Notes under the pieces: model-generated
Told to the model about the DNA's origin: nothing
Database searches by the model: none
The model's input: the letters and a program-made list of their open reading frames with translations, nothing else
From: a virus
Strand: one strand, 5' to 3'
Length of the DNA: 64,000 nt
IMG/VR virus record: IMGVR_UViG_3300035703_000055
Coordinates: 1 to 64,000 of that record
Shown: positions 14,460 to 64,000 of the stretch, in pieces
Layout: every line of letters begins with the position of its first letter
Position numbering within the stretch: the stretch's first letter is position 1
Program-made: the position numbers and the translations under genes

Positions 14460-14941
14460 AGCGATCAGGCTTCAAGCGCCAGACCATCGAGCGCAAGCCG
14501 ATCGTCTATGCGCCCATCCCTGAGCACTTGCGCAAGCGTGTGAGCACCGGGCCGGCTGAGCTCAAAGCCTTGCCCAAGACCGAGCGCGAAGAGAATGCGC
14601 ACTACCGGGCCATGGCGCGCGACAAGGACTGTCAGCTACTCATCCCAGGGGTGTGCAATTTCGATCGCTCCACGGTCGTCCTGGCGCACAGCAACTGGCA
14701 CGACAAGGGTGCCGGCCGGAAGGCGTCGGATTTCTGGGGGGTCTGGGGTTGTTACAGCTGCCACGCCTGGCTGGACCAGGGCGGCGCGCCAGGCTCCGTG
14801 AAGCAGGTGCATTTTGCGTTTGGCCTGAAGCGCATGAAGGGCGAGCTGCAAAAGATTGTCGACGATCCAGCCCAGAAGCAGCGCGACCGTGAAGCCGCGC
14901 AGTGGGCGCTAGACAGACTTGGGGTTGTAGCCGGCCAGTAG
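14435..14941 (+). CDS. YbcO/DUF1364-like putative nuclease
   Basis: ARDKDCQLLIPGVCN..TVVLAHSN..KASD..GCYSCHAWLD. Confidence 0.8.
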   Translation: MLGRKSELKRSGFKRQTIERKPIVYAPIPEHLRKRVSTGPAELKALPKTEREENAHYRAMARDKDCQLLIPGVCNFDRSTVVLAHSNWHDKGAGRKASDFWGVWGCYSCHAWLDQGGAPGSVKQVHFAFGLKRMKGELQKIVDDPAQKQRDREAAQWALDRLGVVAGQ

Positions 14942-15175
14942 CTTGTAGACCAGCTGGCTCGGGTGGATGCTTTCGTGCAGGTACACATATGCATCTGAGC
15001 CAACCTGCCGCAGCAAGTAGTGGTGATTCTTGCATTCAAGTGTGGTCGGAACTTCGTCCCACGGATTGAGCTCGGGCAGTCTTGGCATTTCTCGAATTAT
15101 GCGAACAGGGTCAAGCTGCATGAATGCCTCACGTCGTCCGTCAGCCGGCCCGCCGACAAATAGGGCTGACATCAT
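14909..15175 (-). CDS. hypothetical protein
   Basis: LFVGGPADG motif; last gene of the leftward cluster. Confidence 0.65.
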   Translation of the reverse strand: MMSALFVGGPADGRREAFMQLDPVRIIREMPRLPELNPWDEVPTTLECKNHHYLLRQVGSDAYVYLHESIHPSQLVYKLLAGYNPKSV

Positions 15176-15372
15176 GGCTTGTCCTTAAAAGTTGGCAGAG
15201 GCGCCCAGTGCGTCCACCCCTGGCCTTTGACAAAGTTTCCGTACACGGCAACTCCCATGCGCTCATTGATGAGTTGCAGCTTGCCGCTGGGTGGCGCTAT
15301 TTCTGTGACGGCAATCCAGTGGTAGCCGGTGTCGACCACGGCGGCGCCGTCAGATGTTTTCTTGATGCTCAT
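15172..15372 (-). CDS. DUF551-like small protein
   Basis: WI.V.E..P..THWAPLP motif. Confidence 0.65.
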   Translation of the reverse strand: MSIKKTSDGAAVVDTGYHWIAVTEIAPPSGKLQLINERMGVAVYGNFVKGQGWTHWAPLPTFKDKP

Positions 15373-15568
15373 TTTTTACTCGGTCCTTGTACTTGTTGAA
15401 GCGCCATGAGGTGGCATCGGTTTCGATGCGCAACCACACGGCCTCTTTCTCTTCTGATGTCATCTCTGTCCAGCGGGCCACCTCAAGGTAGTGGCGGCCG
15501 CAGCCGGAGCAGATGTCTTTGTAGAGCACATCGCAAACTGCGATGCATGGGCTGTCCGGTCGGGTCAT
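15350..15568 (-). CDS. DUF1289-family Cys-rich protein
   Basis: SPCIAVC..ICSGCGR..EVARW..M...EK..VW. Confidence 0.8.
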   Translation of the reverse strand: MTRPDSPCIAVCDVLYKDICSGCGRHYLEVARWTEMTSEEKEAVWLRIETDATSWRFNKYKDRVKNEHQENI

Positions 15569-15798
15569 TTTCTTGCCTTTTCTTTTGCGGCCTCGTACTT
15601 CTTCAGCCACTTATCGAACTCTGGCCACACGGGGTCGTTCTCGTCGGCCGGGTCGTACGGCAAATTGCCGGCAGAGTCGTACGAGAACGATGGCCCGCAG
15701 TAGGTGTGATAGTCGACCCACACGTAGCGATTGCCGACGTGCAGGCGACCCCATGGGTTGGTGCAGATGATGCCGCCGGGGATGCGTGTGCAGGTCAT
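15565..15798 (-). CDS. hypothetical protein
   Basis: MTCTRIPGGIIC..YHTYCGP; coupled to neighbours. Confidence 0.6.
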   Translation of the reverse strand: MTCTRIPGGIICTNPWGRLHVGNRYVWVDYHTYCGPSFSYDSAGNLPYDPADENDPVWPEFDKWLKKYEAAKEKARK

Positions 15799-16007
15799 GA
15801 AACCGCCCTGACGGCTTCGTGCCACATTGAGCCAATGAAGATGGCCAGCAGGATTGCCGCGCCCAGTGCCAGCCTGCCGATGAGCAGAAACGGGATGCTG
15901 GGCTGGTCTTGGTCGAGCCTCTCCTTAGCGCAGCGGATTCGCTCAATGCGAACAGGGCAGTCTCTGCCTTGCCGGCAGTTGCCGTAGTCATCGCAGCAAT
16001 TGCTCAT
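15795..16007 (-). CDS. small Cys-rich membrane-anchored protein
   Basis: CCDDYGNCRQGRDCPVR motif plus a C-terminal TM segment. Confidence 0.6.
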   Translation of the reverse strand: MSNCCDDYGNCRQGRDCPVRIERIRCAKERLDQDQPSIPFLLIGRLALGAAILLAIFIGSMWHEAVRAVS

Positions 16008-24725: not shown

Positions 24726-24800
24726 AGCGGGTTAGCTCAGTAGCAGAGCAGCAGGTTCATACCCTGAAGTGCGGAGGTGCGAGTCCTTCACCCGCAACCA
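24726..24800 (+). tRNA. tRNA with CAT anticodon (Met, initiator-like)
   Basis: cloverleaf: GCGGGT/ACCCGC acceptor, GCTC/GAGC D-stem, CAGG-TTCATAC-CCTG anticodon arm, GGAGG/CCTTC T-stem, encoded CCA. Confidence 0.9.
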
Positions 24801-24813
24801 GCACCACTCGACC

Positions 24814-25590
24814 ATGATCAAACGATTCGGAATCAACAGGTCCGGTCGCGATTTCGTGGTCGGAGACATACACGGCCACTTCAGTCTGCTAACAAAAGCA
24901 TTAGCTGAGATCGGTTTTGACGAGAAGGTGGACCGGCTTTTCAGCGTCGGCGACCTGGTCGACCGCGGCCCCGAGTCGGAAGACGTCACAGAGTGGCTCG
25001 CTCGCCCCTGGTTCCACGCAGTGCGCGGCAACCACGAGCAGATGGCCATTGACGCCCGTGTGGGCTACTTCAACGCCAGGGACTACCTCATGAACGGTGG
25101 AGCCTGGTTCATGTCCCTGCCAAGGGAGTACCAGCGCTTCTACACGGACGCCTTCGAGGCGATGCCGATCCTGATCGAAATTGAGGTGCAGCACCCAACC
25201 TGGCCGGATTCGCAGCTCGTTGGCCTGGTTCACGCCGGATGCCCAATGGACAGTTGGACCGAGCTCAAGGAAGAGCTAGTCAAGCAAAGCCAGATCACTG
25301 GCAGCCTGGGCAACTACGTTGAGAGCAACTGCCTCTGGTCTCGCACCCGCGTCATGGCGGGCGACCCAAAGGCTGTGGCTGGAATTCACAAGGTGATTTC
25401 TGGGCACACCCCAACCAAACAACCGATCGAGCTGGGCAACAGCTTGTTCATCGACACCGCCGGCTGGATTCCCAATGCGGAGACAGCGGCATTCACCTTC
25501 GTGGAGTTGCCTTCATGGCTTATCCACTCCGTTTCAACAAGTGCAGGGCGGCAGCCCGCAGGAAGTAACGAGCATGCCGCCACCAGATAG
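24814..25590 (+). CDS. NinI/PphA-like Ser/Thr protein phosphatase
   Basis: GDIHG, GDLVDRG, RGNHE, HAG, GHTP, IDT motifs. Confidence 0.92.
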   Translation: MIKRFGINRSGRDFVVGDIHGHFSLLTKALAEIGFDEKVDRLFSVGDLVDRGPESEDVTEWLARPWFHAVRGNHEQMAIDARVGYFNARDYLMNGGAWFMSLPREYQRFYTDAFEAMPILIEIEVQHPTWPDSQLVGLVHAGCPMDSWTELKEELVKQSQITGSLGNYVESNCLWSRTRVMAGDPKAVAGIHKVISGHTPTKQPIELGNSLFIDTAGWIPNAETAAFTFVELPSWLIHSVSTSAGRQPAGSNEHAATR

Positions 25591-43592: not shown

Positions 43593-44783
43593 ATGGTCAT
43601 TGATGAAAACCTGAAGCAGTTCGCCACCGCGCGGCAGGTCGAGTACATCGACGCACTCAAAGCGCACGGCGGATGGCGAGCAGCCGCCCGACACCTCGGC
43701 ATCAGCCACAAGAACATCTTCAAGGCGATCAAGTCCTTGGAGAAAAAGGCCGCCATGCGCGGCTACGCACCAGGGCACGACTTCACCCGCCCAGTGCCCG
43801 ACATGTTCGTGGCCAAGGGCGTCTCCACCTACTACAACAAGGACGGCAAGCCGACCGGGCAGTGGGTCAAGGCAAGCTTGGATGACCAAAAGCGCATGCA
43901 GGCCATGCAGGATGCGATTGCAGCCCTGTGTGACGACGTGCCGCGGGTCAAGTCCACGCCAGCACCCGGCATTTCCAGCGAGTCCCTGGCCACCGTCTAC
44001 ACGCTGACCGACTCGCACGTCGGCATGCTGTCCTGGCACCGCGAGACTGGCGAGGACTGGGACCTGGAGATCGCCGAGCGCGTGCTGACTGGTTGCTTCC
44101 AGGCCATGGTCGACGCATCGCCCGCCGCCGGCGTCGGCATCGTCAACCAGCTGGGCGACTTCCTGCACAGCGACGGCTTGTCACCCGTGACGCCAACCTC
44201 TGGCCACATCCTCGACCAGGACGGCCGCTTCAGCAAGGTCGTCGAGGTCGCCGTGCGCGTGCTGCGCTCGGTTGTCTCCATGGCTCTGGCCAAGCACCCC
44301 AAAGTCATCGTGCTCATGGCCGAGGGCAACCACGACATGGCCTCGAGCGTGTGGCTTCGCGTGCTGTTCAAGACCCTGTTCGAAAACGAGCCCCGCGTCG
44401 AGGTCATCGACTCGCCCCTGCCGTACTACTGCATTCAGCACGGCAAGACCATGCTGGCCTTCCACCACGGTCACTTGAAGAAGAACGACCAGCTGCCGAT
44501 CCTGTTTGCCTCGCAGTTCCCGCAGATCTGGGGTGGCACGACAAAGCGCTACGCCCACACCGGCCATCGCCATCACATCGAAGAAAAAGAGCACTCCGGC
44601 ATCACCGTGATTCAGCACCCAACGCTGGCAGCGCGCGACGCCTACGCAGCCCGCGGCGGCTGGGTTGCCGAGCGCCAGGTCACCAGCATCACTTATCACT
44701 CTGAGTTTGGCCAAGTGGCTCGCCACACCGTCACCCCCGAAATGATCGAGCCGACAGCAACAAAAAGTTGCATCAGCGGCTAA
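43593..44783 (+). CDS. HTH + calcineurin-like metallophosphoesterase
   Basis: DSHVG, GDFLH, GNHD, HHGH, GHRHH motifs; N-terminal AAARHLGIS HTH. Confidence 0.85.
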   Translation: MVIDENLKQFATARQVEYIDALKAHGGWRAAARHLGISHKNIFKAIKSLEKKAAMRGYAPGHDFTRPVPDMFVAKGVSTYYNKDGKPTGQWVKASLDDQKRMQAMQDAIAALCDDVPRVKSTPAPGISSESLATVYTLTDSHVGMLSWHRETGEDWDLEIAERVLTGCFQAMVDASPAAGVGIVNQLGDFLHSDGLSPVTPTSGHILDQDGRFSKVVEVAVRVLRSVVSMALAKHPKVIVLMAEGNHDMASSVWLRVLFKTLFENEPRVEVIDSPLPYYCIQHGKTMLAFHHGHLKKNDQLPILFASQFPQIWGGTTKRYAHTGHRHHIEEKEHSGITVIQHPTLAARDAYAARGGWVAERQVTSITYHSEFGQVARHTVTPEMIEPTATKSCISG

Positions 44784-50948: not shown

Positions 50949-51572
50949 ATGCCTACACTCGCCGCCATCGATCAAGCCAAGCCCTTCGCCACGAAGGCTT
51001 CGTTTGCTGGCGCCTCCGAGATCCTCATTGCCGACGGATTCCTTGTGAATCCCGACGCCGTGCGTGAGGATGCCCTGGCGGCAGACTTTATCGACTGGCA
51101 GGGTCACGATGGCCAGGTCTACAAGCGAGTCTGCCTAAAACCTGTCCCAGGCCTGCAAGAGGCCATCGAGCGCGTGTACGGCCCCGTCGAGATGTTTGGC
51201 CAGGGATACCGGCTCAACTTCGCGGGCGAGATGCCAAACCAGTCGATCCACTCGGATCTGGGGTGGGGCTCACATGCCGCGGTGATCTATCTCTGCGACG
51301 GCCCAGGCGGCACCGCATTCTGGCGACACATGAACACCGGAGCGACCCGCATTGAGGTTGGCGACCACGAGCTGTTCGACGCAATCGGTGGCGACTGGGA
51401 GCTCGAGCAATCCTGGGAAATGGTTGGCCTGGCCGAGCTGGCCTACAACCGAGCAGTCCTGTACGACAACGCGCTGTTCCACAGCCGCTATCCGTTCGAG
51501 GCCTTCGGCACCGACAAGCATGACGGCCGCCTGATCGCGGTCGCTTTCTTTACGCCGGAGACGCTCAAATGA
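50949..51572 (+). CDS. 2OG-Fe(II) oxygenase (DUF6445-like)
   Basis: HSD..IYL..GGTAFW..YNRAVLY..FHS..R facial triad pattern. Confidence 0.82.
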   Translation: MPTLAAIDQAKPFATKASFAGASEILIADGFLVNPDAVREDALAADFIDWQGHDGQVYKRVCLKPVPGLQEAIERVYGPVEMFGQGYRLNFAGEMPNQSIHSDLGWGSHAAVIYLCDGPGGTAFWRHMNTGATRIEVGDHELFDAIGGDWELEQSWEMVGLAELAYNRAVLYDNALFHSRYPFEAFGTDKHDGRLIAVAFFTPETLK

Positions 51573-52018
51573 TCCGGCGCGCTACCCAGGCAGACATGGA
51601 ATCCGTGCTGCGCATGGGTGAGCGCTTCTATCGCTCATCGCACTACAGCGGCTGGGCCGACTTCTGTCGCGAATCCTCGCGCAAGCTGGTGCAGATGGTC
51701 ATCGACACGGGCGTGCTGATGATCGCTGATCAGGACGGGCAAGACGTTGGGATGGTCGGACTTGTGGTGGCTCCGTTCATGTTCAACAACGACAAGCTCG
51801 GCGCCTACGAAGTGTTCTGGTGGGTCGAGCCCGAGGCTCGCGGCGGCATGACTGCCTGGCGCTTACTGAAGTCCATCGAAGAGGTTTGCGCCGAAATGGG
51901 TGTGGCTTCGATTCAGATGGTAGTTCTGTCCGACTCTCCGGAGCAGGCAGCAAAGATGTACGAGCGCGCTGGCTATGTTCACAGCGAGACGTCGTTTACA
52001 AAGATTTTGAGGAACTGA
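51569..52018 (+). CDS. GNAT acetyltransferase (internal-virion-protein-A-like position)
   Basis: MIRRAT..D, WWVEPEARG, YERAGY. Confidence 0.85.
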   Translation: MIRRATQADMESVLRMGERFYRSSHYSGWADFCRESSRKLVQMVIDTGVLMIADQDGQDVGMVGLVVAPFMFNNDKLGAYEVFWWVEPEARGGMTAWRLLKSIEEVCAEMGVASIQMVVLSDSPEQAAKMYERAGYVHSETSFTKILRN

Positions 52019-54793: not shown

Positions 54794-57700
54794 ATGGCAC
54801 AACAAGACTTCTCTCTTCTCCTGAGCGCCCTGCCGGGCTCCGAGTCACCCGCTCCCGCTGCAAGCCAAGCGCCTGCGCGCAGTGGCGACAACGTCTCGAA
54901 TTTCGTGGGCACCTACCTGCCCCTTGCTCAGCGAGTCTCAGAGAAGACAGGCGTCGCGCCTGAAGCCTTGCTTGGCCAGTGGGGCTTGGAGACCGGCTGG
55001 GGCAAGAGCGTCATCCCGGGCACCAACAACCTGGGCAACATCAAAGACTTTTCCGGCAAGGGCCCGAAAGCCGTCGACAACATGACCAAGTCGACTGACG
55101 CCTACCGCGCCTACGAAACGGTCGACGATTTTGGTGACGACTTCGCTGGCCTGCTGTCGCGCCGCTACCGCACCGCACTGAACGCCGGCGGCGACACCCA
55201 GAAGTATTTCAACGAGCTCAAGCGCCTAGGCTACGCCGAAGACCCGAACTACGTGGCTTCTGGCGTCAAGGCCGCCAAGATGGTTTCCAATGTGCTGGGC
55301 ACCAGTGCAGGCCAGGCTCCTTCATTCAGCAATGCGCGCCCACTGACGACCGACCGCAGCATGGGCGAGGCCCTGGCCGACAACCTGTTGGGCGCAGCAT
55401 CTGGCGTGGTCACCGGCGCAAAGCTGCTGACCGACACTTTTGGTGCAGACAACCGCGTGTCGCAAGCCCTGGGCGACACCACCAAGGCGCTGACCGACAG
55501 CCAGTCCCAATACCGCAAGGATCAACGCCAAGAGCGCGCCTTCGAAATCAAGAATGCCGAGGCGTCCGGCAGCACCTGGAACGAGATCGTTGCCAACATC
55601 GGCGGCTTCCTCGAGGCGCCTGTTGAGACCACGCTGAATGCCTTGGGCACCAGCGCCCCGACACTGCTGATGGCAGTCATCCCAGGCCTTGGACAAGCTC
55701 AGGCCGCCCGGTTCATTCTGCAGGGCGCGGCCGGTGCTGCGCAGGGCGTGGGCGCCGCCAAGAGTGGCATCTACGACGCGGTGCGCAACGAGCTCGAGGC
55801 TACAGGCAAGTACACCGCCGATGAGGCCGCCAAGATCGCCGCCGGCGCGCAGGCGTACGACAGCGAGAACGCTGGCAACATCGCCATCAACGGCTTGCTT
55901 GGCCTGGTGGCTGGCACCTCCGGTATTGAATCGGTGGCGGGCCGCCTGGCTGGCCGCAAGGTTGGCCAAGAGACAGCTCGTGGCATTGCTGGCCGTGCCG
56001 GCATGGGTGTGGCCAAAGAATCGCCCGTCGAGGGCGCGCAAGGCGGCTTTGAGCGCTACACATCCAACGTCGCGCTGCAGAACGAAGGCTTCGATGTTGA
56101 CCCCATGCAGGGCGTCGCTGGCCAGGCTGCCGGCGAAGCGATTGCATCCGCTCCTGGTGGTGCCGCATTCGGCGCACTGGATCGCGGCGTCACACCTCCT
56201 CCCGCTCCCAACCCCCTGCAGTCCGTTGTTGACCAGGCGCAGAAGCCCGGCAGCGTGCTCTCGCGCGCCGTGGTGTCCACCGGCGTCACTGATCAGCCAG
56301 TCGTTCCCGTTGAGAACACGATCGTTCCCGGCCAGGAAACAGTCGCCGGCGCACAAACCCAAATCGGGGTTGATCAAACCCAAATCGGGAACACTTCCAA
56401 TCCAACTGGCCCTGGCCCTTCCGCCGATCCGTTTGCCCGCAAGGCAGCCGAGCTCGAGCAAGTCATCCGCAGCCAGGACCTGATTCGCTCCATCCGCACC
56501 GATGGCGCAGGCCTCAACGGCGTGATGTTCGACCTGCGCACCTTGCGCGACCCGAGCGCTCGCGAAGACATCAAGCAGGCCGCACAGCAGCGCATCGAAG
56601 AAGAAATCACCTGGGCCCAGACCAACTACAGGCCCAAGCCTGAGATGGACACGGTGCAGGGCACGCCAGGCTTTGAGCCCATCGACCCAGCTCGCCAGCC
56701 CGAGCCTCGTGGCCAAGACGTCATGGGCCTGGACATCGTCCGCGCCACACTGCGTGACCCGCAAATCGGACCCAAGGTCAGCGACACCGATCGCCAGGAA
56801 ATCCTGCGCTTCTCGGCTGACGCCCAGAACCCAGGCCTCCCGCTCCAGACACGCCAGCAAGCAGCTCAGCAAGCCATTGAGCTCGTCGGCCGCTATCGCG
56901 CTGCCATGGAGCCCCAGGTTCAGCCCGCAGCGGATTCCGCTTCGCCTGAAGAGCAACAAACTGTTGTCGATCAAACAGCGCCCGTTGCCGATGAAACAAC
57001 AGCCCGCACACCCGCCGGCGCTGGCCCAGCCTTGTTCCGCCGCCGCGCCGAGACCATTGGCCAGCTCGTGGCCAACGGCTTTGAGACCGTGCAGCGCCGC
57101 CCAGACGGCTTCTTCCTGACCAACACCAAGACCGGTCAGGAATTCAAGCTGGACAGCATGGCCGACGCGCAGATCGCTCGCAATCAGATCCAGAAGGCTG
57201 TTGACGCCAAAGCCAACACCGCTGCCGCCAGCCCACTGAATGACCTGGCCGAGCCCACGCAAGCTCAGATCGAAGCCGGCAACTACAAGAAGTCGGACGT
57301 CATCGACCTGAACGGCATGAAGATCAAGATCGAGAACCCCAAGGGCTCGGTCCGTCGCGGCACGTCTCCTGACGGCGTCATGTGGGAGACCAAGATGGCT
57401 CACCACTATGGCGAGTTCCAGGGAACCGTCGGTGCTGATGGCGACAAGCTCGATGTGTTTGTGGGTCCACGCCCAGACGGCGACAAGGTCTACGTCATCG
57501 ACCAGGTCAACGAGGACGGCTCCTTCGACGAGCACAAAGTCATGATGGGCTTCACCTCGGAAGAGGCTGCCCGCGCCGGCTACCTGGCCAACTACGAAAA
57601 AGGCTGGACCGGTCTGGGTGCCATCACCGAGATGCCGGTTGCCGACTTCAAAACCTGGGCCAAGTCACGCCAGGCCAAGAAGCCTGCAGCGAGCATGGCC

Positions 57701-60700
57701 AAGCCCGCCGCCGCTGCGCCTGTCGCCGAGACTGCGGCCGCGCCTGCAGCCACTCCTGCCGCCCCAAGCACTCAGGGCCAGTTCGCCACCGCGGACGAGG
57801 CCAAGGCCTACATCTCCCAACAGCGCCGCACAAACGGCAACGTCTCTGGCCTGCCGCTACAGATGGCTGACGGCACCTTTGGCATCGCCATCAAGGGCAC
57901 GCCTCAGTACGCCGAGGCCGAGCGTCAACGTGACGAACGCGATGCCCAGGCAGCCAAGTCTCAGGGCGAGTTCTTCACCGTGCCCGATGGCGGCAAGCAG
58001 AAGAAGCTCAAGCGCGTCAAGAAGTCGGCCATGCCCAAGAAGGCCAGCCCGCGCCGCATGGGCGAGCCTCGCGCACTGACGCAAGACGAAGCCTCCATGA
58101 TCGAGCAGGTCGCCGCAGTGCTGGGCAAGAACGTCGTGTTCTTCGAAGCCCAAGGCGATCGCATCGGCGACGGCTTCATCCTGCCGAATGACCCAAGCAC
58201 GCTGTACGTGGCGACCGAGACCACAGTGAATCCTCTGGCCGTGTTTGGCCACGAGTTCTTCCACGGCCTGCGCGAGACCAACCCCGAGGCCTGGAACGCG
58301 ATTGCAGCCGTTGTGCGCACCCGTGTGGCCGATCCCAAGGGCTTCCGCGAGGACTACTACCGCGGCGGCGACGACAGCCAGCTCAGCGAAGAGAAGGGTG
58401 GCGAGCTCGAGGAGCTGGTCTCCGATCTGGGCGGCAACCTGATGATGGACCCGACTTTCTGGCGCGACGTGTTCGCCAAGATCGGCGAGGACCACGGCAA
58501 AGACGCCAAGGGCATCATCGCCCGCCTGGCCGCCGCCATCGAAAGCCTGATTGCTCGCGTGATGAAGGCCATGGCCCAGCCTGGCTTCCGCGCCAACGAT
58601 TTTGTCAGCGACATCGAGTCCATCCGCAACGCCTACAAAGACGGCCTGGCCGACTTCATCAAGGCCGCCGGCGTCAACAAGGCCTCAATGGGTGCCGAGG
58701 TCGCCAAGGCCAAGCAGGGCCTGCTGAAGACGCCCGATCGCGCCGCACAGCCTGGCTCACTGACCGTTGAGGGCTACCACTTCAGCCAGCAGCCTCGCGC
58801 CGTGTTGACGACCGGCCTGTTTGGCACTGGCCTGAATGGCAGCGCTCGCGACGAAATCATGAACGCCGATGACCAGCGCCTGCGCCAGCGTCTGTCGTTC
58901 TACGTCAACAAAGGCACCGGCATCAACCCCGAGGCTGGTGTTGGCGCCTACGCCCACAAGGCAACGCTCACCAACATCTACGACAGCGACGCCGATCCAC
59001 TGCGCCTGCGCACCGGTGATGCCCGCGCATTCGAGTCCAAGGTGCTCGACGCTGGCTTCAGCGGCTACCTGGCCCGAATGGACGGCACACAGTCCGGCAA
59101 CGTAGTGCTGCTGGGCAACCAGACCGTCAAGCCCGAGTTGCTGGGCACCGGGCCCGTCAAGGGCGCCAAGGTTGTGCCAGCCCCGCAGCAGCGAGACCAG
59201 GACACTGCCGATCGCCTGATGGCCAGCAAGGATCTGCCGGCCGGCATGCTGAGCCCTCAGCGCTGGTCTGAAGTGCTCATAGCGCAAGACCCTGAGCTCG
59301 CCGCCCAGCTGCTGGACATCGGCGCATTCGAGGGCTCCAAGGGCATGTACAAGGACGAGCTCGCCGCCAAGGTGCGCTCGCTCGGCGGCCAGATCCGCAA
59401 GTCGGCCGACCGCGCCAAGAGCGAATACGACGCCGTCGTCGCTCAGTACAAAGGCACCGATGCCTGGATGAAGGCGCCCAACGGCGAAGCCACCAAGCTG
59501 TCCGAGCGTCAGTGGGTGCAGGTCCGCACGCCAAGCTTCAAGAAGTGGTTTGGCGACTGGGAAGCCGCACTCGCCAAAGGTGGCGTCTGGGCTGTCGAGG
59601 ATGTGTCCAAGGCTGTTGGCGAGAACGGCGAACCCCTGGTCGTCTACCACGGCTCCGACAAGGGCGGCTTCACTGAGTTTGAGGCACCTGGCGGCAGCGG
59701 CCGAGGCGACCTCGGCATCTGGACCACGCCGGACTACGGCATGGCCAAGAGCTATGTGCGAAAGGGTCGCGCTCGCGACGTCGACCTCTCGACGCCCAGC
59801 CAATCAGAGCTCGAGGATGCGGGCTACGAGTTTTTCGGCCTAACCGATGACGACACCGAGTCCCCTGGTCAGTACTACGACGAGCCAAATGGCGACAGAA
59901 ACGGGCCATTTGAGACGGAGCAGGAGGCTGTCGCAGATGCGGCCACCTCGTTTGAGGGCGAGGCCGGCGTTCAGCCTGGCATCTATGCCCTGTTCATCAA
60001 CATCCGCAACCCCAATGAGTCCAACTTTGAGGGCGCGATGTGGAACGGCGAGCGCATCGACCAGTTCCAGGTCCGCGACGAGAACGATGAGCCCGTCTAT
60101 GACAAGGATGGCCGCGGGTACTTTGACCGCGACACCGCAGAAGCTCTCGTTGAAGCCAACCCTGGCGCAGAAATGCAGCCGGCTGATCCGAACTTCGAGA
60201 CCACAGACGACGTGGTTCGCGAAGCCCTTCGCAACGACAACGACGGCGCCATCATCCGCGAGGTGATCGACGACGGCGGTGGCCCAGGTTACTTCCTTGA
60301 CCCGCAGGACATCTTTGTCGCCTTTGATCCCTCGCAGGTCAAGTCCGCCGACTACAACAACGGCGAGTTCAGCGACAGCACCGGCGATCTGCGCAAGTCG
60401 GCTGATCGCAAGTCACTCAAGCGCGAAGACCCGTTCGAGATGTCGACCCGAATCCCGACAGCCAAGGGTAAGGCTGTCGAGGATCACATGGGCGATTTGT
60501 TGATCTCCGACTTTGGGTCCGGCAAGAGCCAGGAGAGGTGGATCAACACCGTCTCGGGCATCGTCACGCAGTACCCAAACTACCGCGAAGCCGACAGCGC
60601 GAAGACGCCAGAGAAGAAGCTTGAGCGCCTGATCCGCCAGATGACAGACAACCTGGTGTGGCTGCACAACCAGGTTCCGGCAAGCACACGCAAGCGCAGC

Positions 60701-63112
60701 AAGCTCTGGTACGACGGCGCCAACGCCATTGCCGAACGCATGGCCAAGCGCTACGGCATCACCGAGCCTCAGGCTGCCGGCATTCTTGCCGTTCTGAGTC
60801 CGCAGAAAGACTGGTTCATGAACGTGAGCCTGGCCGACCGCGTGGCCTCGATCATGGCTGAGCGCCAGAAATTTGCCTGGTCTCCACAGATGGAAGCCAC
60901 GTCCAAGCGAATCTACGGCGGCGCGCAGTACCAAGTGGCCCTGGATCAGGTTCGCGGCAAAACGCTGGGTGGCCTTGATGACGACTACCTCGCCTCAATC
61001 TGGCTGCGTGTTTACGACCAAACCTACAACAGCCGCTCGTTTGACATTGTTTCGCCCGAAGGCGACATGCTTGCCCGCGCTCAGACCAAAAAGGGCGTCG
61101 ACGCCAACGTGGCATGGGGAGGCAACAGCACCATCGCCAAAGCGATCGCAGTCTTCCGTGATGGCGGTGTGGGGCGCATTAGCTCGGAGCTTGGCACCAA
61201 GCACAAGGTTCGCAACTTCTACAACAACATCCTGGTTCCAAACAGCCGCAATGGCCACGTCACGATTGACACGCATGCTGTGGCTGCAGCACTGCTGCGT
61301 CCGCTGTCGGGCAATTCACTCGAGGTCAAGCACAACTTTGGCGGCGCCAGCAACGCAATCTCCGGTCTGCAGGGCACATACGCCCTGTACGAAGAGGCTT
61401 ATCGTCGCGCAGCCAAGGAGCTCGGGCTCTTGCCTCGAGAGCTTCAATCGATCACCTGGGAAGCTATTCGCGGGATGTATGTCCCAGGATTCAAATCGCA
61501 GCAGAAAAATGTTGACGGTATTGATAAAATCTGGACTCAATTCAAGAAAGGACGTCTGAGCTATGACGGAGCAAGAGAACTCGCAATCGAAACTGCTGGA
61601 GGCATTGAAGCCCCTAGCTGGCTCGGACGCAACCCTGGCGTTTATGTTGAAGAACAGCTTGCCGCTGAATCTGACGACGTATCTGGAGATGGAGTATCCG
61701 GAGGGAGCTCCGAAGACATTGTCATCCGAGCAGTTGGCGATGATTCCGGAGCCCCTGAGGCAGGCATCCGCCGCTCAGGAGATCGAGACGGAGCAGGACT
61801 CGATTCGAGCGGAAGCCGTTCGCAGGGAGAAGGTGCGCAAGATGGCGCAGGACGCCTCGCGCCGCTTCCCGGCTACGCCCACGGCAACATCCAAGGGGCG
61901 GCAGGGCCGGACCCGCGGATAGTCGAAGTCGCCGAGAAGTACGCGCGCGACAACGGGATCACGCTTGTCCGTCAGGCCGAGTATGTCGAGGTTGATCCCG
62001 AGCGAGCCGCGCGCATTGCGGATGCCTACCAGGCAATGCCGCATGCGCCTCAAGACCCACGCGTCAAAGAGGCGTTCCGGAACCTGATCAGCCAGACCCG
62101 CGCTCAGTACGACGCGCTCATCGAAGCTGGCTACGAGTTCACGTTCTTCGACTCCAACAGCGACCCATACCAGGGCAACCCCTGGAGTGCCATGCGGGAC
62201 TTGCGCGCCAACAAGCGCATGGCCGTGTACGGCACCTATGACGGCTACGGCACCGAGGGCATCACCGCCAAAGCGGCCGATGACAACCCAATGCTGGGTG
62301 ACACCGGTTTGCAGTGGAAAGACCAGGGCGGCCAACTGCGCCCAGTGGCGGCCAACGACCTGTTCCGCGCTGTGCATGACGCTTTTGGCCACGGCCTCGA
62401 GGGCGCAGGCTTCCGGGCCCAGGGCGAAGAAAACGCATGGCAGGCCCATGTGCGCCTCTTCACTGGCTCGGCCGTCGGCGCCATCACGAGCGAGACCCGC
62501 GGCCAAAACAGCTGGCTGAACTACGGCCCGTACGGCGAAACAAACCGCACGGCAAAGCTTGAAGGCACCGTTTTCGCCGAGCAGAAAACCGGTCTCATGC
62601 CAGAGTGGACATGGAGTGAGGGTGTGGCCGCAGATGCCGGCGACATCCGAAAGAGTCCTGCGCGCCGCAATGACCTTATGGCCGCAAAGCTGTCCCGCGT
62701 CGGCATCAAAAGCGCCGACGACTTTTGGAGGACCTGGCGCAATCTGATGGTTGGCACCGCCGGCCCAGATCCACGCCTGTCGGCGATCGGCTCGACTGAT
62801 TCACAGGTCCAGAGGGTTGAGGGCCTTGTGCGGGCGCACAGGATTGACGCTGACGACTCCGGCATTCTGAGCGTACTCAAGGGGTACGACACCAAGCCCG
62901 AAGGCGCCAAGACCGGCGGCAACGAGGATGGCGTCGTCACCTCTGCAATCGCAAAGCGAATCTTGGAGAGCGCGGGCGTAAAGCCAACCGTTGAAAACGC
63001 GGTTGCGGCATACGAATCGCTGCCAGGCAGCGCTCAACAAAATGTTGTTGATGCAACATACAATCAACGCATCGCCGCCCTCAAAGATCTCATCTCCTGC
63101 CTGAAGAAATAA
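54794..63112 (+). CDS. giant polyvalent ejection protein (glucosaminidase, InPase-like, HExxH peptidase, ART-like, HhH-glycosylase-like domains)
   Basis: LETGWG..NNLGNIK..GYAEDPNY (GH73); AGNYKK..IENPKGS.R..DGD.LDVF..FDEHKV; HEFFH; PLVVYHG; KVRNFY..VTIDTHA; AVHDAFGH..GEENAW. Confidence 0.88.
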   Translation: MAQQDFSLLLSALPGSESPAPAASQAPARSGDNVSNFVGTYLPLAQRVSEKTGVAPEALLGQWGLETGWGKSVIPGTNNLGNIKDFSGKGPKAVDNMTKSTDAYRAYETVDDFGDDFAGLLSRRYRTALNAGGDTQKYFNELKRLGYAEDPNYVASGVKAAKMVSNVLGTSAGQAPSFSNARPLTTDRSMGEALADNLLGAASGVVTGAKLLTDTFGADNRVSQALGDTTKALTDSQSQYRKDQRQERAFEIKNAEASGSTWNEIVANIGGFLEAPVETTLNALGTSAPTLLMAVIPGLGQAQAARFILQGAAGAAQGVGAAKSGIYDAVRNELEATGKYTADEAAKIAAGAQAYDSENAGNIAINGLLGLVAGTSGIESVAGRLAGRKVGQETARGIAGRAGMGVAKESPVEGAQGGFERYTSNVALQNEGFDVDPMQGVAGQAAGEAIASAPGGAAFGALDRGVTPPPAPNPLQSVVDQAQKPGSVLSRAVVSTGVTDQPVVPVENTIVPGQETVAGAQTQIGVDQTQIGNTSNPTGPGPSADPFARKAAELEQVIRSQDLIRSIRTDGAGLNGVMFDLRTLRDPSAREDIKQAAQQRIEEEITWAQTNYRPKPEMDTVQGTPGFEPIDPARQPEPRGQDVMGLDIVRATLRDPQIGPKVSDTDRQEILRFSADAQNPGLPLQTRQQAAQQAIELVGRYRAAMEPQVQPAADSASPEEQQTVVDQTAPVADETTARTPAGAGPALFRRRAETIGQLVANGFETVQRRPDGFFLTNTKTGQEFKLDSMADAQIARNQIQKAVDAKANTAAASPLNDLAEPTQAQIEAGNYKKSDVIDLNGMKIKIENPKGSVRRGTSPDGVMWETKMAHHYGEFQGTVGADGDKLDVFVGPRPDGDKVYVIDQVNEDGSFDEHKVMMGFTSEEAARAGYLANYEKGWTGLGAITEMPVADFKTWAKSRQAKKPAASMAKPAAAAPVAETAAAPAATPAAPSTQGQFATADEAKAYISQQRRTNGNVSGLPLQMADGTFGIAIKGTPQYAEAERQRDERDAQAAKSQGEFFTVPDGGKQKKLKRVKKSAMPKKASPRRMGEPRALTQDEASMIEQVAAVLGKNVVFFEAQGDRIGDGFILPNDPSTLYVATETTVNPLAVFGHEFFHGLRETNPEAWNAIAAVVRTRVADPKGFREDYYRGGDDSQLSEEKGGELEELVSDLGGNLMMDPTFWRDVFAKIGEDHGKDAKGIIARLAAAIESLIARVMKAMAQPGFRANDFVSDIESIRNAYKDGLADFIKAAGVNKASMGAEVAKAKQGLLKTPDRAAQPGSLTVEGYHFSQQPRAVLTTGLFGTGLNGSARDEIMNADDQRLRQRLSFYVNKGTGINPEAGVGAYAHKATLTNIYDSDADPLRLRTGDARAFESKVLDAGFSGYLARMDGTQSGNVVLLGNQTVKPELLGTGPVKGAKVVPAPQQRDQDTADRLMASKDLPAGMLSPQRWSEVLIAQDPELAAQLLDIGAFEGSKGMYKDELAAKVRSLGGQIRKSADRAKSEYDAVVAQYKGTDAWMKAPNGEATKLSERQWVQVRTPSFKKWFGDWEAALAKGGVWAVEDVSKAVGENGEPLVVYHGSDKGGFTEFEAPGGSGRGDLGIWTTPDYGMAKSYVRKGRARDVDLSTPSQSELEDAGYEFFGLTDDDTESPGQYYDEPNGDRNGPFETEQEAVADAATSFEGEAGVQPGIYALFINIRNPNESNFEGAMWNGERIDQFQVRDENDEPVYDKDGRGYFDRDTAEALVEANPGAEMQPADPNFETTDDVVREALRNDNDGAIIREVIDDGGGPGYFLDPQDIFVAFDPSQVKSADYNNGEFSDSTGDLRKSADRKSLKREDPFEMSTRIPTAKGKAVEDHMGDLLISDFGSGKSQERWINTVSGIVTQYPNYREADSAKTPEKKLERLIRQMTDNLVWLHNQVPASTRKRSKLWYDGANAIAERMAKRYGITEPQAAGILAVLSPQKDWFMNVSLADRVASIMAERQKFAWSPQMEATSKRIYGGAQYQVALDQVRGKTLGGLDDDYLASIWLRVYDQTYNSRSFDIVSPEGDMLARAQTKKGVDANVAWGGNSTIAKAIAVFRDGGVGRISSELGTKHKVRNFYNNILVPNSRNGHVTIDTHAVAAALLRPLSGNSLEVKHNFGGASNAISGLQGTYALYEEAYRRAAKELGLLPRELQSITWEAIRGMYVPGFKSQQKNVDGIDKIWTQFKKGRLSYDGARELAIETAGGIEAPSWLGRNPGVYVEEQLAAESDDVSGDGVSGGSSEDIVIRAVGDDSGAPEAGIRRSGDRDGAGLDSSGSRSQGEGAQDGAGRLAPLPGYAHGNIQGAAGPDPRIVEVAEKYARDNGITLVRQAEYVEVDPERAARIADAYQAMPHAPQDPRVKEAFRNLISQTRAQYDALIEAGYEFTFFDSNSDPYQGNPWSAMRDLRANKRMAVYGTYDGYGTEGITAKAADDNPMLGDTGLQWKDQGGQLRPVAANDLFRAVHDAFGHGLEGAGFRAQGEENAWQAHVRLFTGSAVGAITSETRGQNSWLNYGPYGETNRTAKLEGTVFAEQKTGLMPEWTWSEGVAADAGDIRKSPARRNDLMAAKLSRVGIKSADDFWRTWRNLMVGTAGPDPRLSAIGSTDSQVQRVEGLVRAHRIDADDSGILSVLKGYDTKPEGAKTGGNEDGVVTSAIAKRILESAGVKPTVENAVAAYESLPGSAQQNVVDATYNQRIAALKDLISCLKK
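61502..61552 (+). promoter_or_regulatory. internal promoter and RBS for the nested gene
   Basis: CAGA-AAAAT-GTTG at 61502-61514, TG-A-TAAAAT at 61522-61530, AAAGGA at 61547-61552. Confidence 0.55.
61563..61922 (+). CDS. nested +1-frame gene inside the polyvalent protein gene (candidate immunity/inhibitor)
   Basis: own ATG, RBS and extended -10; protein-like composition, unlike other shadow ORFs. Confidence 0.6.
   Translation: MTEQENSQSKLLEALKPLAGSDATLAFMLKNSLPLNLTTYLEMEYPEGAPKTLSSEQLAMIPEPLRQASAAQEIETEQDSIRAEAVRREKVRKMAQDASRRFPATPTATSKGRQGRTRG
63035..63064 (+). promoter_or_regulatory. CAAC-N5-GTTG box plus -10 upstream of the next gene
   Basis: CAAC-AAAAT-GTTG at 63035-63047, TACAAT at 63059-63064. 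Confidence 0.5.
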
Positions 63113-63118
63113 AGCACC

Positions 63119-64000
63119 ATGGCCACATTTACCAACTGCCTGCAAATCGTCAACGCAATGCCTGAGCAGGACCAGGACGCACTCCTGACCCGGCTCGATG
63201 AGCTCCAGGCTCAGGGCATGAGCCCAAAAGAGGCGCAGCTGCAGGCGGCCATTGACGTGCTGACGCAGATTGAGCAGGCGGCCGATCCCGATTCGGGACT
63301 GGATAGCGTCGACATCCGCTGGAGCCCCCGACGCGAGCCGGCGCCGGAGAAGACCGTCAAGGCATACAAGCTGTTCCGTGTTGACGCCCGGCAGCCTGGG
63401 AAGCTATTCCCGCTCTTCGTGAATGCCAACGAGCCGATCGACATGGGCGCCTGGCTCGATGCCGATGAGGGGCCAATGCAGGGCGGCAAGGTCAAAAGCA
63501 AGCTCGGCCCGCTCGCTTACCGTCCGGGCTGGCATGCGGGCGATCTGCCAATCGCAACGCACATTGGCGGCAAATCAAACGCAGCGCTTAAGAAGCCTGA
63601 CTTGCGCCCGGACAACCAGGTCTGGGCCGAGATTGAGATGGCCGCGGATGTTGACTGGCAAGCCGAGGCCACTAAGCGCGGCACCAACGCCGACGGCAAG
63701 CTGGTTGCCGTGCGCGCTCACATCACCGACCAGATCCCGGTGAACGGCTTCTACCGCTACAAGACCAACCCCAACATGACGGGAAACTGGCTGATTGGCG
63801 GCTCAATGAAAGTCAATCGCATCCTGTCCGACGCGGAAGTCGAGCGCATCAATGCCGCCGCCGGCGTAGCGGACCTCCAAAGGGAAGAGCCATTTGACGC
63901 CAAGAAGTACGGCTTCAAGATGCGCAAGTCTGTCGACCGCCCTCAGTTCTACAGCCAGCTGCAGCGCGCCATTGAAGGCGTGCCTGATCGCCTGAGCAAC
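63119..64000 (+). CDS. second large polyvalent protein (truncated by the window end)
   Basis: open from ATG 63119 to the window end (hand translation); KTVKAYKLF..LAYRPGWH domain, then MRKSVDR linker and FYSQL domain start. Confidence 0.85.
   Translation, partial: MATFTNCLQIVNAMPEQDQDALLTRLDELQAQGMSPKEAQLQAAIDVLTQIEQAADPDSGLDSVDIRWSPRREPAPEKTVKAYKLFRVDARQPGKLFPLFVNANEPIDMGAWLDADEGPMQGGKVKSKLGPLAYRPGWHAGDLPIATHIGGKSNAALKKPDLRPDNQVWAEIEMAADVDWQAEATKRGTNADGKLVAVRAHITDQIPVNGFYRYKTNPNMTGNWLIGGSMKVNRILSDAEVERINAAAGVADLQREEPFDAKKYGFKMRKSVDRPQFYSQLQRAIEGVPDRLSN

Follow-up and report, generated by a model that had tools for sequence, protein, structure and literature searches.

A recurrent junction tag in the interdomain linkers of giant phage polyvalent proteins, a candidate processing signal for a resident zincin

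Introduction

The processing of polyvalent proteins, in which several unrelated effector or enzymatic domains share one giant chain, by a metallopeptidase (MPTase) domain was predicted by Iyer, Burroughs, Anand, de Souza and Aravind (2017; PMC5512222), who did not name the site. Cutting by built-in metallopeptidases has been assumed since 2017, and the idea has stayed untested because no site was named. Here we describe a seven-residue peptide, typically I-R-K-S-x-x-R, that recurs at the module junctions of two giant proteins, P0001 and P0122, of an uncultured phage. The window analyzed is the first 64 kb (64,000 nucleotides, nt) of the 79,093-bp phage contig IMGVR_UViG_3300035703_000055. The domain set of P0001 makes it a polyvalent protein as defined by Iyer et al.: a giant multi-effector chain, encoded in a block of phage virion genes, with ADP-ribosyltransferase (ART-PolyVal), InPase, muramidase and unknown domains and a zincin. 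It differs from the proteins of those authors in that its zincin falls outside the Pfam models, including PF18818. The junction tag, the lack of it at terminal modules and its link with the zincin family go beyond that work; that the tag tracks the zincin family is new in the present analysis, and the tag itself was not found described in our literature searches.

In the MARTX toxins of Vibrio the linkers between effectors are cut after Leu, inside the target cell, by a cysteine protease domain of the same chain. The likeness extends to the single delivered chain with several effectors, the built-in protease (here predicted), the recurring linker sites and the shuffling of effectors at the junctions. 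However, MARTX is a bacterial toxin whose cysteine protease is activated by inositol hexakisphosphate and whose cleavage is experimentally proven, whereas here the candidate enzyme is a zincin, the presumed carrier a phage capsid, the site seven residues long and the cleavage predicted from sequence. A resident protease also cuts the viral polyproteins of picornaviruses (3C) and coronaviruses (Mpro), where a short recurring boundary site co-evolves with the protease; the sister motif described below, V-L-N-Q followed by S or G, looks like a site of the 3C type. Those polyproteins belong to eukaryotic RNA viruses and are cut by cysteine or serine proteases into replication products, whereas here a DNA phage would use a putative metallopeptidase on anti-host effector modules packed in the virion.

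Among phages, the internal proteins of T4 are cut by gp21 and the inner-body proteins of phiKZ by gp175, so that capsid-carried, injected proteins are trimmed at short consensus sites. The prohead protease of these phages acts on many head proteins, whereas none was found in the phage studied here, in which the tag is confined to P0001 and P0122. The same likeness holds for DdrB of phage P1, a processed, phage-packaged protein (cited in PMC5512222). The closest cultured relative of P0122 is found in Pseudomonas phage F116 (Hollowayvirus; gp59/gp60, 45% identity over aa826-1897). F116 likewise has two giant genes with lysis genes and an integrase behind them and shares the C-terminal PLxRFG/'tail-700' domain, but its HExxH motifs are different and it lacks the tag altogether.

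Results

A short tag recurs between the modules of P0001 and P0122

By Pfam, P0001 contains a Glucosaminidase domain (aa43-156), InPase (aa823-957), ART-PolyVal (aa1610-1859) and DUF7178 (from aa1941). After the InPase come a zincin module (about aa1040-1316) and five tag-delimited modules. P0122 has an ART(-PolyVal) at aa849-982 and a PLxRFG/'tail-700' domain at aa1230-1887, and no HExxH of its own. Both chains thus unite unrelated effector or enzymatic domains, several in each, and the genome around them has terminase, portal, capsid and integrase genes. The features in the window are as follows.

54794..63112, plus strand: polyvalent protein 1 (P0001), 2772 aa (open reading frame list, translation, Pfam)
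57911..58741, plus strand: zincin module, of the class called type A below, aa1040-1316, with HEFFH at nt 58250-58264 (aa1153; alignments of homologues)
58721..58741, plus strand: tag 0, LLKTPDR, degenerate, P0001 aa1310, at the end of the zincin module
58742..59392, plus strand: module 2, 'LTVEGYHFS' domain, aa1317-1533
59393..59413, plus strand: tag 1, IRKSADR, P0001 aa1534-1540
59414..60388, plus strand: module 3, aa1541-1865, ADP-ribosyltransferase ART-PolyVal PF18760 (aa1610-1859; Pfam E=2.3e-16)
60389..60409, plus strand: tag 2, LRKSADR, P0001 aa1866-1872
60410..61765, plus strand: module 4, DUF7178 with a G/S/D-rich linker, aa1873-2324 (Pfam E=3.1e-29)
61766..61786, plus strand: tag 3, IRRSGDR, P0001 aa2325-2331, isolated within a low-complexity linker of 83 residues
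61787..62644, plus strand: module 5, the '...HDAFGHGLEGAGFR...PEWTW' domain, which has no name, aa2332-2617 (tblastn matches H4, H6-H12)
62645..62665, plus strand: tag 4, IRKSPAR, P0001 aa2618-2624
62666..63112, plus strand: module 6, C-terminal piece aa2625-2772, with the conserved tail YNQRIAALKDLISCLKK
63119..64000, plus strand: polyvalent protein 2 (P0122), 5' part in the window; 1900 aa, ending at genome nt 68821
63314..63334, plus strand: tag 5, IRWSPRR, P0122 aa66-72, closing a 65-residue leader
63920..63940, plus strand: tag 6, MRKSVDR, P0122 aa268-274, before the 'PQFYSQLQRAIE' module

The seven peptides, like the HEFFH, had been listed in an initial annotation of this DNA, and all are in frame and exactly where they had been placed. 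Past the window P0122 continues with a weak copy before its ART (PLFSRDR, nt 65591) and a further one at the end of the ART (DIRKAADR, nt 66083). At the orthologous junction between the zincin and the 'YHFS' module, which in P0001 begins 11 residues past tag 0, homologues carry I[KR]KSxxR (IKKSEDR, IRKSTRR) and also ITKSADR and similar peptides. By this comparison LLKTPDR is a degenerate copy of the tag that orthologues have kept at the same junction. Tag 3 is invariant in orthologues with variable flanks (clusters U2-U4), and in homologues the 'PQFYSQLQRAIE' module is preceded by DIRFSPPR, VRRSAAR and similar peptides. As to the modules themselves, the second has a weak structural likeness to the RES-type NAD+ toxins NatT and MbcT, the ART of the third follows an FKKWFGDW lead-in, and the PEWTW domain of the fifth is common to many other phage polyvalent proteins (61% identity to phage MW202722).

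The tag is far more frequent than expected. Matches to the strict pattern [ILVM]R[KRFYWQLM]S..R number 4 in P0001, where shuffles predict 0.031, and 2 in P0122, where they predict 0.02; these figures are biased because the pattern was drawn up once the sites were known. A six-frame scan of the whole 79 kb gave, in the long frames likely to be genes, only the six in-frame matches of P0001 and P0122, and one additional match fell in a putative 488-aa minus-strand frame. We then used a word-indexed search to collect 120 related giant proteins with shuffled architectures; the set of 121 proteins compared holds 148 strict tags against 5.5 in shuffles. These counts and the six-frame scan rule out a chance or compositional artefact. 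The general form of the tag is hydrophobic-[RT]-x-S-x-x-R, and the ART tails of a wider group of relatives, found with a hidden Markov model (HMM) of the zincin, end in D-I-[RT]-x-S-x-x-R. Its surroundings favour small or polar residues only, no single residue exceeding about 30% at the flanking positions. The strict pattern had no matches in phages MW202722 and MW202675.

The tag lies in linkers, at breaks of homology and only where a module follows

Two AlphaFold2 models, built on shallow alignments (26-28 sequences), span aa1001-2640 of P0001. Their stretches with a predicted local distance difference test score (pLDDT) below 50 include aa1312-1318, 1534-1537, 1802-1873, 2287-2369 and 2617-2625, that is, the five tag sites of P0001. 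The neighbouring 'YHFS', DUF7178 and PEWTW domains score 75-96; the ART module itself is poorly modelled. Tag 1 is flanked by blocks with pLDDT of 87 and 75, tag 2 lies 7 residues past the end of the Pfam ART model, DUF7178 scores 80-95 across aa1874-2286 and the linker of tag 3 only 22-29. Since all five sites sit in low-pLDDT stretches between confident domains, the tags are linker motifs, in keeping with their initial placement at apparent domain boundaries. A conserved island of this size in disordered linkers, which recurs in orthologous linkers, has the properties of a short linear motif (3-10 residues conserved in fast-evolving disorder).

Homology also breaks at the tag. When the 121 proteins were compared all against all by BLASTP, 954 high-scoring segment pairs (HSPs) ended at position +6 and 322 at +7, against 20-60 elsewhere, a spike that coincides with the last Arg. 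Most of it comes from ART junctions; when these are removed the +6 peak is weaker but persists, and extra peaks of HSP ends appear 6-11 residues upstream. In P0001 itself HSP starts peak at aa1317, after tag 0, and HSP ends at aa1874, after tag 2. At BLAST level, at least 18 unrelated segment families precede the tag and at least 19 follow it. The breakpoints of gain and loss among homologues therefore do fall on the motif. The initial annotation would have been contradicted by motifs inside folded domains without breakpoints at them, and we found the opposite.

The PEWTW domain is the last module of 17 type-A proteins, with 27-36 residues left after it, and none of them has the tag, whereas in the 13 cases with 165 residues or more after this domain the tag or a close variant is present in nearly all. 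Free-standing DUF7178 proteins (about 100 of some 660 aa) likewise lack it. The module after IRWSPRR has a free-standing phage homologue, the 110-aa gp252 of Cronobacter phage CR8, whose Met1 aligns to aa76 of P0122, 4 residues past the tag, where the module starts. Judged from these homologues, the tag belongs to the junction and not to any domain. The diversity of the flanking families and the tagless terminal and free-standing homologues rule out that the tag belongs to the ART fold or to any other single domain.

The tag tracks the family of the zincin

The zincin module of P0001 has an HExxH and a conserved downstream third ligand, as in zincins of the gluzincin type; D1126, H1153, E1154, H1157, E1207 and D1211 are invariant in 26-51 homologues (alignments A1 and A2). 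An HMM search with the module retrieved 582 representative proteins at E<=1e-3, nearly all giant. It is unrecognised by Pfam and NCBIfam, phmmer found nothing relevant among the PDB sequences, and aa1001-1309 gave zero Pfam matches even at E<=1, so that PF18818 (MPTase-PolyVal) is not matched either. Foldseek (pdb) and VIA-align (wide) with a 560-residue multi-domain model returned weak rows only (collagenase, PprI; E>0.1), and with the two over-long multi-domain AlphaFold2 models neither program assigned a clear fold to the zincin, DUF7178 or PEWTW. Related loci in GTDB genome contigs were searched for and none was confirmed.

Two classes of zincin could be told apart among the relatives: type A, xVFGHExxHxL[RK], the HEFFH-type of P0001, and type B, STFLHExGHFFL, which is MPTase-PolyVal-like. 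The profile comparison of both (hhalign) gave a probability of 3%, with only the HExxH core aligned, and by these comparisons the P0001 zincin is a family separate from MPTase-PolyVal. The tag was found in 66 of the 67 type-A proteins (162 copies), while the 40 type-B proteins have 5 copies in total, near chance. Type-B proteins have instead a different junction motif, [VIL][LFY][NEK]Q, with 103 copies against 26 expected; in type A it is not enriched (29 against 31). The type-B motif precedes the same modules: VFNQ followed by SLSTRVP (DUF7178), VLEQ..TEAFKRW (ART) and ILKQ followed by GPRGTF (zincin). The podovirus MW202722, whose zincin is of type B, has MLNQ followed by PARGGFDP. In the type-B relatives P0032-P0120 (L001:1249-10878) we observed V/I-L/F-N/E-Q and then S or G, resembling 3C-type protease sites.

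The ART module, present in both backgrounds, allowed the association to be followed in a phylogeny. Among the ART tails, 123 junctions were A with A, 13 were B with B and none was cross-type. For the tree (IQ-TREE) we used 112 ART cores trimmed of the tail. Counting only well-supported branches, the zincin background shifts at least 6 times (the best tree has 14 shifts), and in every one of the 6 independent pairs the junction type shifted too (sign test p=0.031). Since the junction switched in all of them, modules that change background adopt the local junction peptide. Type A thus goes with I-[RT]-x-S-x-x-R and type B with V-[LF]-[NE]-Q, the pattern of a site that co-evolves with its protease.

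Discussion

A candidate processing signal

P0001 has a resident putative protease and, in the linkers between its modules, a short site that recurs, the makeup of a self-processing polyprotein. Considering the linker position, the link to the junction and the co-variation with the zincin, we give about an even chance that the tag is a processing signal for the resident zincin, and propose it as a concrete candidate for the long-predicted cutting sites of polyvalent proteins. The hydrophobic-R/T-x-S-x-x-R peptide would act as a short linear motif in a flexible linker after every non-terminal module, to be recognised by the gluzincin-like peptidase within P0001 (HEFFH at 1153, E1207), in cis on P0001 itself and in trans on the peptidase-less P0122. 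Cutting would yield two chassis, an N-terminal one in one piece (muramidase, InPase and zincin; aa1-1316) and a C-terminal one with PLxRFG, and would release about eight effector modules (a RES-like domain, two ARTs, DUF7178 and others). Packaging of both proteins in the virion and delivery with the DNA are likewise suggested by their location among virion genes, the N-terminal muramidase and the PLxRFG/'tail-700' domain.

Several points weigh against this proposal. That the tag is cut, by which enzyme, at which bond and when (in the capsid or after ejection) are all deductions, and for P0001 and its relatives cleavage is a prediction. Peptidase activity of the zincin is presumed from HExxH and E alone, in a module with no Pfam or PDB match, and the zincin was absent from 50,697 phage records (tblastn), so from cultured phages. 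Zincin polyvalent proteins may also stay uncut, as N4 vRNAP, ArdC and TraC1 do (PMC5512222). The co-variation rests on two classes of motif and zincin and on a small independent sample (6 pairs), the ART tree has many weakly supported branches, and the zincin family is confounded with phage lineage, so that any other lineage-specific reader would give the same pattern. Besides, I-R-[YF]-S tags are also found in a few proteins with other or no HExxH (P0079, P0085, P0116). The predicted nature of the cleavage, the lineage confounding, the two classes and the intact zincin proteins are the reasons why we do not go beyond an even chance. Of the earlier suggestion that an in-cis zincin releases the effectors after injection, the cutting has gained indirect support (zincin co-variation, at least 6 ART transfers, no tag without a following module), while 'after injection' was a guess.

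Among the alternatives, a linker motif that has nothing to do with proteolysis is possible but improbable in our estimate. The chains would stay intact, and the tag would either insulate modules or be bound by another lineage-specific partner, such as the packaged DNA, the interior of the capsid or portal, a chaperone or the ejection channel during unfolded transit. A basic tag in disordered linkers, conserved as a short linear motif, would suit this role; several zincin-bearing polyvalent proteins are transferred uncut (PMC5512222), and co-variation with the zincin type is inseparable from that with phage lineage. However, in a generic spacer or DNA-binding patch there would be no need for a Ser and an Arg that never vary and keep a constant distance, or for a wholly different, uncharged V-L-N-Q in the sister lineage. 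There is no known candidate for the reader, and the tagless terminal modules fit separation better than docking. We find it less probable still that the tag is cut by a different protease, a basic-specific one of the host or an unrecognised phage enzyme, with the zincin doing another job, for instance attacking host proteins. Homology does stop right after the Arg, as it would for an enzyme of trypsin-like or dibasic specificity, whereas the preference of zincins is usually for the residue that follows the cut. An effector role for the MPTase was also allowed by Iyer et al. (PMC5512222). However, no other protease was found in the phage, and a host enzyme would leave unexplained why the junction peptide changes at every lineage move. 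A prohead-protease site was rejected on the same ground, no such protease having been found in the phage, and 2A-like ribosome skipping or self-cleavage by a Ser nucleophile was rejected, by our own reasoning only, for the absence of a structured context.

The remaining alternatives we regard as very improbable. One is that the tag is a DNA micro-homology for in-register recombination of cassettes and that the peptide has no function, a purpose suggested in the initial annotation as the other option. Cassette exchange does have its breakpoints at the tag, and some copies are alike at 16-18 of 21 nucleotides. Nevertheless, the invariant Ser is coded by TCG, TCG, TCA, AGT, AGC and TCT, members of both codon families (TCN and AGY), the Arg of the tag by CGC or CGA, with identical residues often using different codons, and the longest nucleotide run common to tag copies is about 9. 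The DNA has therefore diverged more than the peptide, as had been noted from the beginning, and since this codon use indicates that selection acts on the peptide, micro-homology is an unlikely reason for the tag; its lack exactly where no module follows also speaks for a function at the peptide level. A conserved peptide may still provide short micro-homology as a by-product of exchange. The lowest probability of all goes to a modification site, by phosphorylation of the Ser in its basic context or ADP-ribosylation of the Arg or Ser by the resident ARTs, that would regulate the modules. Both residues are invariant, nearly all these proteins have ART domains and the phage codes for a NinI-like Ser/Thr phosphatase, but type-B proteins share the ART families and have a junction motif free of Ser and Arg. 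Moreover, no kinase was found and the placement at junctions only would be unexplained.

Returning to the processing signal, the two classes together raise a broader and more tentative proposal, which we rate somewhat below an even chance: phage polyvalent proteins could be self-processing polyproteins with a 'junction code', I-R-K-S-x-x-R being read by the HEFFH-type zincin and V-L-N-Q by the MPTase-PolyVal type. If so, an effector cassette entering a new phage would have to gain the local code to be released, and in these proteins DNA phages would have their own equivalent of the polyprotein processing of RNA viruses and of the MARTX toxins. In practical terms, a defined seven-residue tag provides exact residues, predicted fragment sizes and peptide substrates, with the tag of the sister lineage as a natural control of specificity. 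If it is cut, it would show where functional modules begin and end in giant phage proteins that lack annotation, of which there are thousands, improve the discovery of domains in anti-defence effectors and offer a portable pair of protease and site. If it is uncut, it would still be a strongly selected, unexplained linker motif coupled to phage lineage.

Genome context and other observations

The window genes include those for the terminase subunits, portal, likely scaffold and major capsid; a prohead protease was not recognised in the head module or elsewhere in the phage. Tail fibres and an internal virion protein are also encoded, and then the two giant genes. Beyond these lie an integrase, RtcB and an RNA ligase:

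L004:6299-7534: integrase, directly after the polyvalent genes
L004:13574-14776(-) and 14935-15894(-): RtcB and Rnl-type RNA ligase, further on from the integrase

Since the integrase immediately follows the polyvalent genes, the phage is temperate, like F116. Two genes within the virion block, adjoining the internal virion protein, code for an acetyltransferase (phrog_1249, window 51569-52018) and a 'DNA repair exonuclease' (phrog_704, window 43593-44783). The NinI-like Ser/Thr phosphatase (phrog_246) is located upstream of the terminase genes (window 24769-25590).

In P0001 the 650 residues between the muramidase and InPase (aa170-822, window 55301-57259) are A/G/Q-rich and gave neither a family match nor a junction tag. 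The two proteins face each other with small tag-delimited pieces, since P0001 closes with one of 148 residues and P0122 opens with the 65-residue leader that ends in IRWSPRR (L004:119-334, aa1-72 with the tag); these could be docking partners or packaging signals. The tail at the very end of P0001 (aa2753-2772, window 63052-63109) belongs to a terminal Cys box that is conserved at the C-terminus of many polyvalent proteins: a Cys located 2-5 residues from the end is common in related and unrelated ones alike (..CLKK, ..KCMG, ..KCLG, ..NCPL, ..GCP).

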